Assembly: GCA_033549025.1 (NCBI GenBank)
Contig: JAWSUS010000013.1
Span: forward strand, 1-64,000
Direction of reading: 5' to 3'
Source: Desulfuromonadales bacterium
GTDB lineage: Bacteria; Desulfobacterota; Desulfuromonadia; Desulfuromonadales; SZUA-540
Length of the DNA stretch: 64,000 nucleotides
In this document: piece by piece, positions 18,654 to 26,278 of the stretch
Position numbering within the stretch: position 1 is the stretch's first letter
How the letters are laid out: each line of letters opens with the position of its first letter
Translations under genes and position numbers: made by a program
Notes under the pieces: model-generated
Database searches by the model: none
The model's input: the letters and a program-made list of their open reading frames with translations, nothing else
What the model was told of the DNA's origin: nothing

Positions 18654-19682
18654 TCAGGCCGATTCCCGGCTTCTTCTTTTCAGCAAAAGACCGACGACTG
18701 CGGCCAACAGCAGGGTCAGCGCGCCGCCGACGATCCCAGCGGCCGACGTACCGGCATCAGCCTGCGGCCAGGTTTCTTTTTCAGCAACTTCCGCACTCTG
18801 TTCTTCCGAACGGAAACCATAGTCCGGGAAAAGGGCCAACCGCTGCTGCACCCTCGCCAGACCGCCGTGCAGCCCTTCTCCTCCACTCTGCTCCTCTTCG
18901 AAGCCCGCCTTGGCAAGGGCCCATTCGAGTCCATCAGGATGAGCGGAGGCAAACCAGGAAAAGACTCCACCGACCAGCATTGCCGCAGCCAACAGAACGG
19001 CCAGGGCCTTTTTGCGTCGGCGCGGAGCAGCCGCAAGGACCGGAGTCATCCTCAGCAGATCGGGACGCGCCTGTCCCACATAGCGGACCACCGCCGCGGT
19101 GACCAACCCCTCCACCAGGCCGATCCCCAGATGGATGGGTTGCATGAGCAGAGCAAAGGCGACAAAAGGCAAATCGGCCAGCCCCGACAGGGTCGTCTGC
19201 AGAACGACCGCGAAGGCGCCGAACTGTAAGGCGACAACCGCGGCCAGAACCGTTGCGAAGGTCCGCCTGTCATTGCCGCCGTCGCCCGCCGCCAGGGGGC
19301 GGTAAATGAGCGGATAGGCCAGCAGGCAGGGGAACAGGCCCAGATTGACGATGTTGCTGCCCAGCGCCAACAGCCCGCCATCGGCAAAAAAGAGGGCCTG
19401 CACCGTCAGCACCGACGCCACCACCACAAAGGCAGCGTGGGGGCCCAGCAGAATAGCAAGGAGAAGGCCGCCGCCGAGATGGCCGCTGGAACCGGTTCCC
19501 GGCAGGGTGAAATTGATCATCTGGGCGGCAAAGACAAAGGCCCCCAGCACCCCCATGAGGGGCACCATCCCGTCCTCCAGGCGTCCGTTAAGACGCCGGG
19601 CGCAGGTGCCGAGAGTGGCGCCGGCAGCTACCCACATCGTGCCGCCAACGGCAGGAGACAGCAGGGCATCGGACATGTGCAT
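18654..19682 (-). CDS. nikMN: ECF Ni/Co transporter S component, fused NikM-NikN (CbiM plus PDGLE domain)
   Basis: Metal-binding N-terminus MHMSD, GSSGHLGG, ADGGL, PDGLE motif; GAGGAG RBS. Confidence 0.88.
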   Translation of the reverse strand: MHMSDALLSPAVGGTMWVAAGATLGTCARRLNGRLEDGMVPLMGVLGAFVFAAQMINFTLPGTGSSGHLGGGLLLAILLGPHAAFVVVASVLTVQALFFADGGLLALGSNIVNLGLFPCLLAYPLIYRPLAAGDGGNDRRTFATVLAAVVALQFGAFAVVLQTTLSGLADLPFVAFALLMQPIHLGIGLVEGLVTAAVVRYVGQARPDLLRMTPVLAAAPRRRKKALAVLLAAAMLVGGVFSWFASAHPDGLEWALAKAGFEEEQSGGEGLHGGLARVQQRLALFPDYGFRSEEQSAEVAEKETWPQADAGTSAAGIVGGALTLLLAAVVGLLLKRRSRESA

Positions 19683-19737
19683 GGGAAAACTCCTCATCGA
19701 GGTATTGCGGCCAGATGATGCCACGTTTTTCATTTTC

Positions 19738-19867: not shown

Positions 19868-19899
19868 AAAAAAGGCGACCCCCAAAAAGGAAGGTCGCC
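19868..19899 (-). terminator. Terminator downstream of nrdG
   Basis: GGCGACC...GGTCGCC stem followed by TTTTTT on the minus strand. Confidence 0.65.
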
Positions 19900-19925: not shown

Positions 19926-20621
19926 TCAGAGCCCGCGGATCTGCACGTCCTCGGCGTAGGTCTCGGCCAGGGCGGCAAAGCGTCTGACCTCGTCTGCCGG
20001 ATGGGGTTCAAGGGCCTGCAGGCTTTCAGCGAGGGCATGGCGGGGCACGAACTGCTGCAATACCCAGGTGCGTGCCCCGGCAATGGCCTGGCCGATGCGG
20101 TGGATATCGGCCTCTTCGACCAGACCGGGAACGCAGGTGGTGCGGAATTCGTATTCCACCCCGGCCTTCAGGACCAGTTCGAGGGAACGCCGCAGAGCCA
20201 AGTCATCGACGGGAGCGTTATGCAGTTCCCCGTAGCGCTCGGACGAGGTCTTAAGATCGATGGCCAGGTAATCGACCAGTTTTTCCCAGAGCAGGCCTTC
20301 GAGCACCTCGGGTGCCAGCCCGTTGCTGTCGAGCTTCACCAGCAGGCCGAGGCTTTTGACCTGACGCAGGAAGGGAACCAGCCCGCCATCCACCGTCGGC
20401 TCACCGCCGGAAACGACGACGCCGTCTATGAAGCTGCGCCGCGAGCGGAGCTCGTCGATCAGGTCGTCGACAGGATAATCGGGATAATGGCCGGGATTGA
20501 GAACCAGGTCGGGGTTGTGGCAGAAGGGGCAAGTGAGATTGCAGCCGCCGTAAAACACCAGGGAAGCGATCCTGCCCGGGTAATCGAGCAGGCTCGTCCC
20601 CTGAAATCCTTTGATGGGCAT
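19926..20621 (-). CDS. nrdG: Anaerobic ribonucleotide reductase activating radical-SAM enzyme
   Basis: GCNLTCPFCHNP (CxxxCxxC), SGGEPT; follows nrdD. Confidence 0.93.
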   Translation of the reverse strand: MPIKGFQGTSLLDYPGRIASLVFYGGCNLTCPFCHNPDLVLNPGHYPDYPVDDLIDELRSRRSFIDGVVVSGGEPTVDGGLVPFLRQVKSLGLLVKLDSNGLAPEVLEGLLWEKLVDYLAIDLKTSSERYGELHNAPVDDLALRRSLELVLKAGVEYEFRTTCVPGLVEEADIHRIGQAIAGARTWVLQQFVPRHALAESLQALEPHPADEVRRFAALAETYAEDVQIRGL

Positions 20622-20624
20622 GGA

Positions 20625-20771
20625 TTACTCGTCGCTGCCCGCCTGGCCGACCACAAACTCGGTGCGGTCCTTGAATTCCTGTTTCTTGCCCTTGTTCCAC
20701 TGCTGAACCGGGCGAAAGAAGCCGCAGACACGGGAGTAAACTTCGGTTTTTGCGTCACATTTGGTTGCCAT
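20625..20771 (-). CDS. Stand-alone glycyl-radical domain of class III RNR (48 aa, absent from the ORF track)
   Basis: MATKCDAKTEVYSRVCGFFRPVQQWNKGKKQEFKDRTEFVVGQAGSDE; AGGAGG RBS; matches the canonical NrdD C-terminus YSRVxGY.RPV..WNxGKxxEFxDR. Confidence 0.9.
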   Translation of the reverse strand: MATKCDAKTEVYSRVCGFFRPVQQWNKGKKQEFKDRTEFVVGQAGSDE

Positions 20772-20789
20772 AATGCCTCCTGGTGGATG

Positions 20790-22778
20790 TCAAGCCGCCT
20801 TCCCCTCGTGGTTGTGGGGGCAGGCGAAATGTTCACCGGTGATGTAGCCATGCACCGGACAGATCGTAAAGGTGGGGCTGATAGTGAAATAGGGCAGATG
20901 GAAGTTCTCGGCGATGCGCCGCACCAACAGGCGGGCGCTGCGCCAATCCTCCAGCCGCTCCCCGAGGAAACCGTGAAAAACGGTGCCACCGGTATAGAGG
21001 GTCTGCAGGCCGTCCTGATGCTGCAGAGCCTGGAAGATATCCTCGGTGCTGCCGACGGGCAGCTGAGTCGAGTTGGTATAGTAGGGCTCGTCGCTGCCGG
21101 CGGTGATGATGCCGGGGTACTTCTTGCGGTCGCGGTTGGCCAGGCGGAAGCTCGTCCCCTCGGCCGGCGTCGCCTCCAGGTTGTAGAGATGCCCCGACTC
21201 CTCCTGAAAGACCTCCAGCTGCTTGCGCATGAACTTCAGGGTCTCTTCCGCCAGCGCCTTGCCCTCGGGCGTATCGATGGATTTGCCGACCAGGTTCAGG
21301 CTGGCCTCGTTCATCCCCAGCAGGCCGATGGTGGAAAAGTGGTTGTCCCAGTAATGGCCGCTGCGCTCCTTGATGCCGGAGAGGTAGAAGCGGCTGAAAG
21401 GATAGAGGCCTTCTTCGGTAAAGCGGTCGAGCTGCTTGCGTTTGATTTCCAGCGACTCGTGGGCGAGCTTCATCAGTTCGGCGATGCGCTCGAAAAAAGC
21501 CTCTTTTGTTTTGGCGACGTAGGCTGCCCGCGGCAGGTTCAGTGTCACGACGCCGATGGAACCGGTCAGCGGGTTGGAACCGAAGAGACCGCCGCCGCGC
21601 CGGCGCAGTTCACGGTTGTCGAGACGCAGACGGCAGCACATGGAACGGGCGTCGGCCGGGTCCATGTCCGAATTGATGAAATTGCTGAAATAGGGGATGC
21701 CGTATTTGGAGGTCATCTCCCAGATCGGCTGGAACCGGGGGCTTTCCCAGTCGAAGCCGACGGTGATGTTGTAGGTGGGGATGGGGAACGAGAAGATGCG
21801 CCCCGAACTGTCCCCCTCCATCATCACCTCGCAGAAGGCCCGGTTGAACAGGTCCATCTCCTCCTGGAAATCGCCATAGGTGACATCCATCAGCTCGCCG
21901 CCGATGACCACGGCCTCATCCTTCATGTTGCTGGGCGGCGTCATGTCCATGGTGATATTGGTGAAAGGGGTCTGGAAGCCGACCCGCGTCGGCACGTTCA
22001 TATTGAAGATGAACTCCTGAACGGCCTGCTTGACCTCCTTGTAGCTGAGCTGATCGTAGCGGATAAAGGGCGCCAGCAGGGTATCGAAGTTGGCAAAGGC
22101 CTGGGCCCCGGCCGCTTCGCCCTGCAGGGTGTAGAAGAAGTTGACCGCCTGCCCGAGGGCCGTACGGAAGTGCTTGGCGGGGCCGCTCTGCACCTTGCCG
22201 TAGGCGCCGGTAAAGCCCTTGAGCAGCAGCTCTTTCAAGTCCCAGCCGCAGCAGTAGACGGAGAGCATGCCGAGATCGTGAATATGATAGTCCCCCTCAC
22301 GGTGCGCATCGGCGATGTAGCCAGGATAGATTTTGTTCAGCCAGTAGTTGCTGGTGATATTGGCCGCGATATGGTTGTTGAGCCCCTGCAGCGAATACCC
22401 CATGTTGGCGTTTTCGTTAACGCGCCAATCTTCCTGGCTCAGGTAGGAATCGATCGCCTCGATGGATTCCTTCATGAACTCCTTGGTCCGGCGCAGATTG
22501 TCGTGCTGCTGCCGGTAAAGGATGTAGGTCTTGGCGGTCTGGGCGTGGCCGTTCTCGATGAGGCTCTTTTCCACCAGGTCCTGCACGTTTTCCACGGTGG
22601 GAATACGGCCATCCTTGTAGATGACCTCCAGGATGCCGACAACCTGACGGGCAATACGGGCCGCCTTGTCCATGTCCTTGCCGCCGACGGCGCGGACGGC
22701 CTTCTGAATGGCCTCGGTGATTTTCTGCTCCTCAAAAGCGACCAGCCGGCCATCCCGTTTGCGAATGTATTCGAGCAT
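20790..22778 (-). CDS. nrdD: Class III (anaerobic) ribonucleoside-triphosphate reductase, catalytic chain lacking the glycyl-radical C-terminus
   Basis: N-terminal ATP cone (IRKRDG), HIHDL..YCCG, RSMCCRL, NLEATPAE, YYTNS, YTGGTVFH; ends at CPVH...CPHNHEGKAA-stop. Confidence 0.95.
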   Translation of the reverse strand: MLEYIRKRDGRLVAFEEQKITEAIQKAVRAVGGKDMDKAARIARQVVGILEVIYKDGRIPTVENVQDLVEKSLIENGHAQTAKTYILYRQQHDNLRRTKEFMKESIEAIDSYLSQEDWRVNENANMGYSLQGLNNHIAANITSNYWLNKIYPGYIADAHREGDYHIHDLGMLSVYCCGWDLKELLLKGFTGAYGKVQSGPAKHFRTALGQAVNFFYTLQGEAAGAQAFANFDTLLAPFIRYDQLSYKEVKQAVQEFIFNMNVPTRVGFQTPFTNITMDMTPPSNMKDEAVVIGGELMDVTYGDFQEEMDLFNRAFCEVMMEGDSSGRIFSFPIPTYNITVGFDWESPRFQPIWEMTSKYGIPYFSNFINSDMDPADARSMCCRLRLDNRELRRRGGGLFGSNPLTGSIGVVTLNLPRAAYVAKTKEAFFERIAELMKLAHESLEIKRKQLDRFTEEGLYPFSRFYLSGIKERSGHYWDNHFSTIGLLGMNEASLNLVGKSIDTPEGKALAEETLKFMRKQLEVFQEESGHLYNLEATPAEGTSFRLANRDRKKYPGIITAGSDEPYYTNSTQLPVGSTEDIFQALQHQDGLQTLYTGGTVFHGFLGERLEDWRSARLLVRRIAENFHLPYFTISPTFTICPVHGYITGEHFACPHNHEGKAA

Positions 22779-22851
22779 CCCTCTCTCCCTCCTTTTGTGC
22801 TGAATGAACAGTGCGAATTTAGCACAGGAAAGATCGCTGTCAAGGCAAAAA

Positions 22852-22899
22852 ACACAACATATAGACATTGATATTTCACACACCCACAACATCTGGTGA
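22852..22899. promoter_or_regulatory. Tandem NrdR boxes
   Basis: ACACAACATATAGACA (22852-22867) and CCACAACATCTGGTGA (22884-22899), 32 bp apart, matching acaCwAtATaTwGtgt, upstream of nrdD and a TTGACA-N16-TAAATT promoter. Confidence 0.85.
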
Positions 22900-23023: not shown

Positions 23024-23443
23024 ATGGCCGACCTGACCCGCTTCGGCATTTCCATGGACGAACGCCTGTTGTCGCGCTTCGATGAGCTCATCACGGGCAA
23101 GGGCTACGCCAACCGCTCCGAGGCCATTCGCGACCTCATTCGCAACGCCCTGGTCGAAGACCGCTGGGCCCGGGACGATGAGGAGATCGTCGGCACGGTG
23201 ACTCTGGTCTACGATCACCACACCCGCGACCTGGGGGACAAGCTCATCGAGCGCCAGCACACCCACCATCAGGCCATCGTCTCGACCTTGCACGTCCACC
23301 TCGACGCCCATCACTGCCTGGAAGTTCTGGTCGTCAAGGGAACCGCCGGCAAAGTAAGACAACTGGCCGACGAACTCATCGGCACCCGCGGCGTCAAACA
23401 CGGCAAACTGGTAACCACCACCACGGGCCAGGATCTGGCCTGA
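23024..23443 (+). CDS. nikR: Nickel-responsive regulator
   Basis: RFGISM ribbon, [22 protein letters not shown]. Confidence 0.96.
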
Positions 23444-23475
23444 CCTCGGCAATCGGCGGCCTCGCCCGCCCAACC

Positions 23476-23502
23476 GTGCCACGAAAACGTCATTCGTAAC
23501 AC
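23476..23502. promoter_or_regulatory. Putative NikR operator upstream of nikQ
   Basis: GTGCCAC-N13-GTAACAC pseudo-palindrome; same spacing and same GTAACAC half-site as the site at nikMN. Confidence 0.7.
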
Positions 23503-23515
23503 CAAAGGCTCCGCC

Positions 23516-24328
23516 ATGGCCCATATCAGCACAGCGCTCCTCAACCTGGGAACTCTGGACGACCTGGCCGCCCGCCAAAGTCCCCTGCATCGTCTCGACC
23601 CCCGAGCCAAAGTGCTCACCACCCTAATTTTTGTCGTCACGGTGGCCTCCTTCGGCAAGTATCAGGTCGCTGCCCTGCTGCCCTTTTTGCTCTTTCCCCT
23701 CGGGCAGATCGCCGTCGCCGGCCTGCCCTTGACCACCTTCATTCGGCGACTGCTCTTTATTGCCCCTTTCGTCCTCTTCATCACCATCCTCAATCCTGTG
23801 CTGGATCGGGAGATTCTTCTGCAGGCCGGCCCTTTGGCCGTCAGCGGCGGCTGGCTTTCCCTGGCTTCCATCCTGCTGCGCTTCGTGCTGACCATTGGCG
23901 CCGCCCTCGTTCTGATCGCCACCACCGGCTTTCCCGGGGTCTGTCGCGCCCTGGAGCAACTGGGCGCCCCCCGCATTTTCACCATGCAACTGCTCTTCCT
24001 CTATCGCTACATTTTTGTCCTGATCGAGGAAGGACTTCGCCTTTTCCGGGCCAGGGCGCTGCGCTCCTTCGGCAAAAAGGGGCTGGAATGGCGTGTTTAC
24101 GCCCTGATGACCGGGCAACTGCTCATGCGGTCCCTGCAGCGGGCCGAGCGCATTCATCAGGCCATGCGGTGCCGCGGTTTTGACGGAAAACTGCCCGCCA
24201 TGCACCAGGCCCGTTTCGGCCGGCAGGAAGTCCTCTTTACCCTGGGATGGAGCGCCATTTTCATCCTGCTGCGCCTTTGGAATCTTCCCCATTGGATAGG
24301 GGGATTATTCATGGAGCTGTTTTCATGA
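23516..24328 (+). CDS. nikQ: ECF transporter T component (NikQ/CbiQ)
   Basis: SPLHRLDPRAK, YRYIFVL, AMRCRGF. Confidence 0.9.
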   Translation: MAHISTALLNLGTLDDLAARQSPLHRLDPRAKVLTTLIFVVTVASFGKYQVAALLPFLLFPLGQIAVAGLPLTTFIRRLLFIAPFVLFITILNPVLDREILLQAGPLAVSGGWLSLASILLRFVLTIGAALVLIATTGFPGVCRALEQLGAPRIFTMQLLFLYRYIFVLIEEGLRLFRARALRSFGKKGLEWRVYALMTGQLLMRSLQRAERIHQAMRCRGFDGKLPAMHQARFGRQEVLFTLGWSAIFILLRLWNLPHWIGGLFMELFS

Positions 24329-25083
24329 CCGAACTCATGGTTCAAGCGAAGAACCTGCAATACAGCTATCCCGATGGGACCGACGCCCTGCGGGAAATTT
24401 CCTTCGAGGTATACCGGGGGCAGTCCCTGGCCATCACCGGGGCCAACGGGGCCGGCAAATCCACCCTGCTGCTCCACCTGAACGGCCTGCTGACGCCCAC
24501 ATCGGGAACGCTGACAATCCAAAATGTCGCCCTCGGCCCCAAAAACCGCGAGAAGGTACAGCGCCGGGTCGGTCTGGTCTTTCAGAATCCGGACGATCAG
24601 CTGTTCATGCCGACCGTCTGGCAGGATGTGACCTTCGGCCCCCTGAATCTGGGCCTGAGCGCCGAGGAGGTTACAGCCCGGGCCACCGAAGCCCTGAACC
24701 AGGTCGACGCCCTTCACCTGAAGGATCGGCCGCCTTTTCGCCTCTCCGCCGGCGAAAAACGCCGGGTCGCCCTGGCGACGGTCCTGGCCATGCAGCCGGA
24801 CATCCTGGTGCTCGACGAACCGACCACCGGGCTCGACCCCTGCAGCCGCCGTCAGCTCATCCAACTGCTCAACGGCTTTGGGCACACGCTCATCCTTGCC
24901 AGCCACGATCTCGATCTGGTCATGGATGTGTGCGAAAGGACGCTTGTCCTGCATGAAAGGAAGATTGCCGCGGAAGGAGCGACCGGGGAGATTTTTACGG
25001 ATGGGGAGTTGTTGCAGCGCTGCCGCCTGGAGAAACCGCTGGGGATGCGGGGATGTCCCCTTTGCGGAAGGGTGAAGCCCTAA
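24325..25083 (+). CDS. nikO: ECF transporter ATPase (NikO/CbiO)
   Basis: GANGAGKST, FQNPDDQLF, LSAGEK, LDEPT; ATGA overlap with nikQ. Confidence 0.9.
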   Translation: MTELMVQAKNLQYSYPDGTDALREISFEVYRGQSLAITGANGAGKSTLLLHLNGLLTPTSGTLTIQNVALGPKNREKVQRRVGLVFQNPDDQLFMPTVWQDVTFGPLNLGLSAEEVTARATEALNQVDALHLKDRPPFRLSAGEKRRVALATVLAMQPDILVLDEPTTGLDPCSRRQLIQLLNGFGHTLILASHDLDLVMDVCERTLVLHERKIAAEGATGEIFTDGELLQRCRLEKPLGMRGCPLCGRVKP

Positions 25084-25098
25084 GGGCGAAACCCCCGC

Positions 25099-26139
25099 CT
25101 ACCGTCCCTCTTTTAACAGGGCTTCCAGTCGGGCCAATCGAGCTTCGAAACGTTCAAGACGCTTTATGATATCGGCCGAGGCGGAGGTTGCCTGCTGGGT
25201 CTGCAGAGCCGCCGTGATAAGTTCAGGGTGCTGGCTGGCATAACCGGCACCAAACAGTTTATCGATCTGGGCCACAATGCGGGACAGATCGGCCGAAAGG
25301 GTCTCCGTGGCTGAATCCTCGGCGGCAGCATACTCAGCGGCCAGGGCCGACAGATCCTTTTTCGCCGCAGTCTGGGCCTCCTCGTCAGGTTCGGGCTCAC
25401 CGCCCGTCTCAACCACCGGCATGTCCCCGCCTGTCCCCTTTTCACGGTCCGCCTGCTGGGCCAAGGTCTCCGTCACAAAGCGATCCAGCCTATCGAGAGA
25501 TTCGCCTTTGGTCGCCTGCAACGCCGGCTCCGGTGTTGGCTCCGGTGTTGGCTCCGGTGTTGGCTCCGGTGTTGGCTCCGGTGTTGGTTCGGGTCTTGGT
25601 TCGGGTCTTGGTTCGGGTCTTGGTTCGGGTCTTGGTTTCGGCGCTGGTTCAGGCTCAGGGGCTGGCGCGACCTCATCCAACGGCTTGGCGACTTCACCAC
25701 TGACTTTCTTTTCCACCAGGGTCTTCGCCACGTCGGCAGGAGCCTCTTTTAGTTCGGCCTTTTTTTCCACCGCCACCGGTTTGGCGACAGCCGGCACAAT
25801 TTCCTCCTGGGCCGGCGGAGAAGGCGCTTTTGGTTGGGCCGTCTGCTCTTTTTTAACACCCACCGCACCGGGGCCTTTCGGCTCCGGCGCTATTTTGGGC
25901 TGAGAACTCTCCTTGGCCACCGCCGGCGCTTTTTCTTCGCCTTTATCCTGTAAAAACGCCGAAGGCTGCGCACCGAAACGATCCAGGGACGACTCCATTC
26001 CCAGAGCCGATCCGGTTGAGGTGCTCTCTTTCAGCGCCGCGCCGCAGCGGGGGCAACGGGAAACTTTCGCCCCGGTCGAGGTGAGCAGGGATACCTTGCG
26101 TCCGCATTCAGGACACTTACTTTCACTAACAAGCGCCAT
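25099..26139 (-). CDS. Hypothetical protein: N-terminal zinc ribbon, Pro/Glu-rich repetitive linker, helical C-terminal domain
   Basis: CPECG...CPRCG; (PEPR)/(PEPT) repeats; AAGGA RBS. Confidence 0.75.
25526..25633. repeat. Compound in-frame 12-bp tandem repeat
   Basis: (GGCTCCGGTGTT)x5 then (GGTTCGGGTCTT)x4, all units perfect. Confidence 0.97.
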
Positions 26140-26278
26140 TTTTTCATCCTTTTCCTTAATTAGAAAAGGGTAGCATAAAATTCTTTGGAGGGAATGGCGT
26201 GGAGGCAAAAACTTTGAGTGGGAACCGAGTCTGGCGCCATCGGCTATTTTTTCAGCTTATTGTCACCGCAAAAGATGT

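Follow-up and report, generated by a model that had tools for sequence, protein, structure and literature searches.

A class III ribonucleotide reductase encoded by two genes in the Desulfuromonadales, with the predicted radical glycine on a 48-residue peptide

We describe a class III (anaerobic) ribonucleotide reductase (RNR) that is encoded as two genes in a Desulfuromonadales bacterium. The window, that is, the whole stretch of 64,000 nucleotides (nt) of contig JAWSUS010000013.1 that was analysed, holds on its minus strand an operon in which a large NrdD chain of 662 amino acids (aa), here called the body, lacks the radical glycine, and in which a separate open reading frame (ORF) of 48 aa carries the glycyl-radical loop. 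The gene of the activase, nrdG, comes next. This split is genuine and is conserved throughout the order. Judging from the sequences, we propose, with a probability of about 0.7, that the 48-residue peptide docks on the 662-residue body, that its Cys5 completes the zinc site and that its Gly17 takes the radical from NrdG. Coordinates are positions in the window unless another locus is named, and papers are cited by their PMC numbers for the parts of the texts that were available.

The nrdD gene (20790..22778) encodes an ATP-cone, the catalytic barrel and three zinc ligands, and is preceded by a Shine-Dalgarno AGGAGG at 22788..22793 (duplex energy -12.1). Its product scores 1035.7 against PRK08270 (cut-off 548) and 516 against TIGR02487 (cut-off 326), and its active-site cysteines (YCCGW at 175 and SMCCRL at 379) are invariant in 31 aligned relatives. 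According to the original prediction, made from the bare sequence, NrdD ends in CPVH-x9-CPHNHEGKAA at a TGA (20792-20790) without any glycyl-radical motif, and a mini-ORF with its own AGGAGG follows 18 nt later, directly ahead of nrdG. Both statements were confirmed. Along the 562 positions of the Pfam family NRDD, the large chain covers 1-526 and the product of the small gene (20625..20771) covers 526-562; the RxxG loop lies on the latter and not on the barrel chain, and none of the 120 closest large-chain homologs has the radical motif in its tail. The AGGAGG of the peptide gene is found at 20776..20781. The Cys5 codon (20759-20757) is assigned as predicted fourth zinc ligand by alignment to fused relatives, and the codon of the predicted radical residue Gly17 (20723-20721) aligns to Gly621 of T. 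maritima NrdD. Starting 3 nt beyond the peptide stop, nrdG (19926..20621) encodes a radical-SAM activase of 231 aa (TIGR02495, 190 bits; cut-off 131). GC content at third codon positions is 0.83, 0.73 and 0.77 for nrdD, the peptide gene and nrdG, respectively. In this genome, 100% complete by markers, there is no second NrdD body and no match to PF01228 (Gly_radical), the domain of the pyruvate formate-lyase (PFL) type, the 48-aa peptide itself matching NRDD only. Thus, NrdG has no other evident target.

The same layout was found in 71 of 80 loci of a GTDB sample (80 loci kept out of 466 matches, to which the window was added as the 72nd junction locus). Every complete junction was split and none was fused, the other nine loci having no complete junction, mostly owing to a contig end. 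The conserved split point, the conserved ribosome-binding site and the lack of fused close relatives were precisely what the original prediction had proposed to look for: a Shine-Dalgarno word precedes the peptide gene in all 72 loci, and nrdG follows it in 60. A cysteine at -5 from the glutamate of EVYSR (Cys5) occurs in 72/72 loci and in 118/119 sequences of another homolog set, and both Cys5 and Gly17 are invariant in 55 aligned sequences. Strong purifying selection acts on the peptide core, with an uncorrected pN/pS of 0.067 (32 codons, compared with the window; pS, at 0.80, is near saturation). Within the order, 56 of 61 genomes contain NrdD, and the sole full-length, stop-free NrdD (L103, at G052:C2) belongs to a genome that also has a split operon. 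The peptide profile was matched in 139 of 151 genomes. Body, peptide and true nrdG are jointly missing from four genomes of one genus, which count as one event because they are kin. Close protein relatives bear Desulfuromonadales names.

A sequencing error, a pseudogene, stop readthrough, frameshifting or splicing could yield, or have yielded, a single chain, and in the window the two ORFs are indeed in frame with the TGA alone between them. Across the 72 loci, however, the spacer ranges from 14 to 254 nt and puts the two ORFs in all three relative frames (24 in frame, 16 and 32 in the others). The spacers are unrelated in sequence among loci and often contain several stops; these loci show no conserved intervening element and no fixed frame relation of the intron, intein or recoding type. 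The stop codon had also been flagged for checking: contigs assembled in four studies bridge the junction without gaps, and none of the differences listed for them is at the TGA (the read data are assembled contigs only, and those from RNA libraries are unable to show transcription). Gaps of such lengths in all frames, the conservation and the bridging contigs lead us to reject this explanation, which we regard as extremely improbable.

Further information came from the position of the break. The consensus of 20 fused relatives is C-x-x-H-G-Y-x6-C-P-x-C-x4-E-V-Y-S-R-V-x-G, in which both cysteines of the second pair are invariant. The body ends after the first cysteine of this pair (Cys653), and the peptide starts with M-A-T-K-C-x4-E-V-Y-S-R-V-C-G, without any shift in register relative to the fused sister L103. 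When the profile of the fused proteins is aligned to T. maritima NrdD, this C-x4-E register falls on the zinc CxxC and on Gly621; the zinc motif of the T. maritima protein has been described (PMC4493059). Three ligands of the zinc ribbon are predicted on the body (codons of Cys640, His643 and Cys653, in 20820..20861, by alignment to fused relatives and T. maritima NrdD); the fourth position aligns to Cys5 of the peptide, with a cis His also near. An AlphaFold2 model of L103 from a 19-row alignment (pLDDT 83.5, versus 35.6 for a single-sequence fold; no ligand geometry is given by the model) matches class III RNR structures first and places both cysteines in a loop between strands 655-658 and 672-677. 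The peptide alone matched no chain among solved structures.

Splits also occur elsewhere in the phylum. In a sample of 121 genomes, 81 have NrdD, which is a single chain in most and is split in eight besides the window genome. At L122 and L124-L126 the body ends CP(L/Y)PH and the peptide cysteine lies at -1. A tree of the bodies, built with the C-terminal domain removed, gave five changes of state among 45 hand-picked rows; the 16 of 61 rows left out were eight redundant split sequences, six distant fused ones and two paralogs without the glycine (L155, L156). A single origin of all splits was considered and rejected by an approximately unbiased test on 32 rows, in which one clade of all 13 split rows had p 2e-5. 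Joining this order with the L122 group (p 0.002) or with L119/L120 (p 0.0007) was rejected too, the test being a quick search under a model without mixtures that does not tell fission from re-fusion. The two paralogs, L155 (G093:C32) and L156 (G126:C20), are second-copy one-chain NrdDs with another residue in place of the radical glycine (RITHY, RLTKY). Three genomes with a one-chain NrdD encode free-standing proteins of the 104-aa type with an NrdD radical loop, RITGY (L127-L129, e.g. L128:7826-8140); these come nearer to being real GrcA-like spare parts of an intact class III RNR. At L125, L126, L142 and L136 (genomes G114, G144, G088 and G179) NrdD contains large in-frame insertions, probably inteins, in open frames of 840-1200 aa.

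A second, intact peptide gene of 49 aa is present in the window genome at G000:C1:11725-11874 (the same gene as L083:11725-11874 and L082:1498-1647). Its product is identical to the host peptide at 29 of 36 positions (81% over 36 aa) and keeps both the cysteine and the glycine. The gene overlaps the adjacent genes and belongs to the early region of a Mu-like prophage, just before gemA. This prophage (about C1:3900-38100) is apparently complete, with transposase, transposition protein, GemA, endolysin, head and tail genes, and contains neither an nrdD body nor nrdG; PHROG gave no match for its peptide. The prophage stretch is essentially uncovered by the assembled-contig data of the studies examined. 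The peptide profile is matched at least twice in 20 of the 139 genomes, and five further lone copies, when opened, were all in phage-like DNA, four of them beside Mu-type genes. Among 57 peptide loci from IMG/VR, a set that includes near-duplicates and partly the same prophages and whose search patterns favoured Cys and Gly, 56 had no body inside the fetched flank and 19 had Mu-like markers. Likewise, no NrdD body was found in 30 of these viral records when they were searched whole (13 of them at least 90% complete). Circularity was avoided in a further viral scan, the pattern of which contained neither Gly nor Cys: from an estimated 590 or so stretches 121 were returned, and the 80 with full flanks comprised 64 lone peptides, 11 one-chain nrdD genes, one peptide beside a body and four duplicates. 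RxxG is in frame in 50 of the 52 lone peptides that have 2 kb of upstream DNA; the cysteine is at -5 in 25 of these 52 and at -1 in 21 (seven have both). More broadly, the peptide profile matched 4432 cluster representatives at E 0.001, many of which could be fragments, and the best 150 were all of 43-192 aa. The lone intact genes of the prophage and the viruses fit a peptide that would act in trans.

Viral copies also showed unusual arrangements. The gene is interrupted by about 800 nt right after the radical-glycine codon at L285:3056-3887, carries a nonsense codon in L161 and small insertions (4-5 nt) in L210-L212; no Rfam intron was matched in the broken copies L161, L210-L212, L242 and L285. 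Some viral contigs have two copies (L210:9153-10081; L170, also L088, at 9475 and 10001; L269/L270). In a Mu-like phage the radical peptide is fused in frame to GemA (L159:7539), and another viral contig has the order nrdD body, nrdG, peptide gene (L166:10001-12651). The archaeal virus ANMV-1 (KP703175) encodes a protein of 144 aa, annotated as anaerobic RNR, whose only match is to the radical loop (L100:12507-12941), and no body was seen among the 64 annotated genes shown.

The body itself carries a further conserved feature. Its short tail (20793..20816), with His655 and His657, ends in Ala-Ala (20793-20798), as do the bodies of 117/120 homologs and 67/73 loci. The same ending was found in 0/120 peptides, 1/54 NrdG proteins and 28/1785 long ORFs of the genome (1.6%). 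Body tails are 6-10 aa long, and the Ala-Ala is written with 14 codon pairs, which indicates that the constraint acts on the protein. Since a terminal AA is a ClpXP signal, and as the tmRNA tag of this genome ends in LAA and clpX is present, the ending is likely a degradation tag of the ClpXP type. Such a tag suggests controlled turnover of the body, which would be awkward for pure reuse of the body and would fit quality control of peptide-free bodies.

Cys5 is likely the natural fourth zinc ligand, and the two chains are probably tethered through the metal. We think so because four bodies that have no spare His or Cys (L023, L026, L028 and L029) keep Cys5, and because the spare His wanders among bodies while Cys5 stays in place. 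Several observations weigh against this reading or against the two-chain proposal as a whole. A His or Cys occurs 2-5 residues past the third ligand in 68/72 large chains and exactly at the fourth-ligand position in 29/72, and CPHH is found in 98/120 homologs. At L119/L120, where the peptide starts at an overlapping ATG, at L123 and at the distant L121, all four ligands are on the body, so that a break inside the zinc site, proposed originally, does not hold as a general rule. In addition, 13/52 lone viral peptides lack a Cys at both -5 and -1; together with the four-ligand bodies, this means that the general design can do without a zinc tether. Peptide genes are broken in 5/57 viral loci, which counts against a strong function of the viral copies. 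The fused sister L103 also ends in Ala-Ala, and the tag may therefore predate the split. The genome also encodes a B12-dependent NrdJ, which means that the class III enzyme may be dispensable.

The spare residues allow another explanation, in which a His (or Cys) of the large-chain tail completes the zinc site in cis, strand pairing and loop insertion hold the peptide in place, and Cys5 has another role or is a relic. The frequency of a residue 2-5 positions from Cys653, at the canonical position in 29 bodies, and the His655 and His657 of the window body speak for it. However, the spare residue varies in both position and identity and is missing in four loci, while Cys5 is kept in 72/72, and we consider completion in cis quite unlikely. 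As regards the proposed role of Cys5, the register with fused relatives and the near-invariance have been borne out; zinc bridging itself is less secure, given the spare residues of most bodies.

Returning to the reading with two cooperating chains, the peptide would dock on the body, Cys5 would complete a zinc site common to both, and NrdG would place the radical on Gly17 of the assembled, active enzyme. In class III RNR, the site of cleavage by oxygen is the radical glycine (PMC5704485); here the small chain would therefore take the damage, and the radical arm could be exchanged. That a free peptide could be activated is chemically plausible, as a 7-mer taken from the PFL loop is accepted by the PFL activase (PMC13450708). 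In the absence of the peptide, the zinc might be retained by the histidine-containing tail, whose Ala-Ala end likely sends the body, perhaps the peptide-free body, to ClpXP. In the simplest view, phage copies would add radical arms to host bodies during phage DNA replication. It is tempting to combine these steps into a fuller model, tentative and rather doubtful as a whole, in which each protomer is a zinc-bridged heterodimer with a radical cartridge that can be exchanged: oxygen would destroy the peptide only, the His tail and the Ala-Ala tag would decide between reloading and destruction, and phages would carry the cartridge to boost anaerobic dNTPs.

Why the chain is split is a separate question. 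The original prediction saw in the peptide a cheap way of repairing oxygen damage. A split selected as a repair device, in which a fresh peptide replaces the cleaved one and the body is reused, is compatible with the two-chain reading and possible, if short of even odds. It is favoured by the example of pyruvate formate-lyase, which has GrcA/YfiD and T4 Y06I (PMC8683613), by the repeated splits near the same place and by the lone phage copies, and the cytochrome bd oxidase of the genome is circumstantial evidence of contact with oxygen. Nevertheless, no promoter-like site is seen in the window between nrdD and the peptide gene, the large chain has its likely degradation tag, and the Shine-Dalgarno of the peptide gene, although stronger than that of nrdG in 39/39 loci, is weaker than that of nrdD in 35/51. 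Surplus peptide through a stronger ribosome-binding site is rejected by these values; taken with the lack of an internal promoter, they point to about equal synthesis and give no sign of a peptide reserve. Moreover, a cleaved stub bearing Cys5 would presumably stay on the zinc and need displacing. The repair claim is plausible but found no support in these features.

Alternatively, the fission may have been neutral: a mobile radical domain would tolerate the break, which would drift to fixation without advantage, the phage copies being passengers. In favour of this, NrdD is a single chain in most members of the phylum sample, P. copri NrdD has a mobile radical domain (PMC11226230), and some viral copies are broken. 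We nevertheless hold neutrality to be unlikely, as at least 4-5 changes of state on the tree, near-fixation in the order and lone copies that keep the glycine in many unrelated viruses argue against it. A different possibility concerns the phage peptide, which could act as a decoy and poison or divert the enzyme or the activase of the host. Its gene lies beside gemA in the early, semi-essential-type region of the Mu-like prophage, a site of host-modulating genes in such phages. Yet the phage peptide keeps both Cys and the radical Gly, and a transposable phage needs host dNTPs, which makes a decoy distinctly improbable.

The operon has the order promoter-like site, nrdD, 18-nt spacer with AGGAGG, 48-aa ORF, nrdG and terminator-like hairpin, and lies wholly on the minus strand. 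The promoter is predicted at 22816..22843 (sigma-70-like, TTGACA-16-TAAATT with a TG extension, 10/12 consensus), and an intrinsic-terminator-like hairpin with a 10-pair stem and a T run ends the operon at 19874..19899. Upstream are two NrdR-box-like sites, 32 nt apart, a distal one at 22884..22899 (11/16) and a proximal one at 22852..22867 (12/16), scored against what we take to be the NrdR-box consensus. Such a pair is found upstream in 45/55 testable relatives and in 0 control stretches, and an nrdR gene is present in the genome. With an nrdG above its cut-off and the low pN/pS of the peptide, the pair agrees with the earlier view that the locus is not a pseudogene. By their translations, the flanking genes are a NikR-like regulator and a CbiM/CbiQ/CbiO-like nickel or cobalt transporter (18654-19733 and 23024-25083). 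A proline-rich repeat (PEPR/PEPT) occupies 25473-25700, inside a 369-aa ORF on the minus strand (25099..26208).

In the open-access literature, as far as its available parts go (bioRxiv supplements and most subscription journals being outside reach), we found no published description of a split-off class III radical peptide, and nrdD is not treated in the available parts of the paper on the P. carbinolicus genome with its supplementary files. Short database annotations had been anticipated, and many entries of 45-60 residues are indeed named 'anaerobic ribonucleoside-triphosphate reductase' without comment; the two-gene layout explains them. In every characterised class III RNR the radical is on the catalytic chain, and a natural two-piece form gives experimental access to several open questions. 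One is the route by which NrdG gets to a glycine lying buried in the resting enzyme, another the role of the zinc ribbon, and a third whether oxygen damage can be repaired in glycyl radical enzymes (GREs) other than formate lyases, a matter of speculation in PMC8683613 and listed as unknown in PMC13450708 (2026). A synthetic 48-mer would permit isotope labels, unnatural residues and half-site experiments that are impossible with a 700-residue chain, and the lone viral genes point to a very small phage auxiliary gene. According to the available text of that 2026 review, spare parts have been identified in no GRE class but the formate lyases (PMC13450708). If true, the exchangeable cartridge would be the first spare-part system for another GRE, and one exploited by viruses.

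The window enzyme resembles one-chain class III NrdD/NrdG systems (T. maritima 4COI/4U3E, P. copri 8P23, S. thermophilus 9D3X, phage T4 1H78-1H7B; PRK08270) in its ATP-cone, barrel, catalytic cysteines, predicted zinc motif and RxxG loop, as well as in the adjacent nrdG and the NrdR-box-like pair upstream. It differs from them in that the radical loop, the Cys predicted as last zinc ligand and the C-terminal helix are a separate gene product, the solved relatives all being one chain. Large subunits in more than one ORF are known from fragmented phage RNRs, namely Aeh1 nrdA-a/b, which is functional, and the three-piece nrdD of phiAS4 (PMC3653736); those breaks, unlike that of the window, are confined to single phages, are tied to homing endonucleases or have no known cause, and are not a conserved release of the radical loop (PMC3653736). 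The split class II RNR NrdJa/NrdJb of Pseudomonas aeruginosa likewise has its C-terminal zinc-binding part in a separate gene (PMC5704485, PMC9669993). In contrast to the window peptide, NrdJb belongs to the B12-dependent class and has a whole zinc finger with reducing cysteines and no radical (PMC5704485, PMC9669993), and its zinc site and that of class III are not considered homologous (PMC5704485). Like GrcA/YfiD of E. coli and Y06I of phage T4, the window peptide is a small free-standing radical-Gly protein with host and phage versions (PMC8683613, PMC13450708). Unlike GrcA/YfiD, its partner is an RNR, it has 48 instead of about 127 residues, it is likely metal-tethered and it has no PF01228 match; moreover, the host peptide of the operon is the only radical arm and not a spare for an intact enzyme, the prophage copy alone being encoded apart. 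In summary, the window peptide works partly like GrcA and is not a member of the GrcA family, and what the window locus adds is the likely tail tag and a prophage copy in the same genome.

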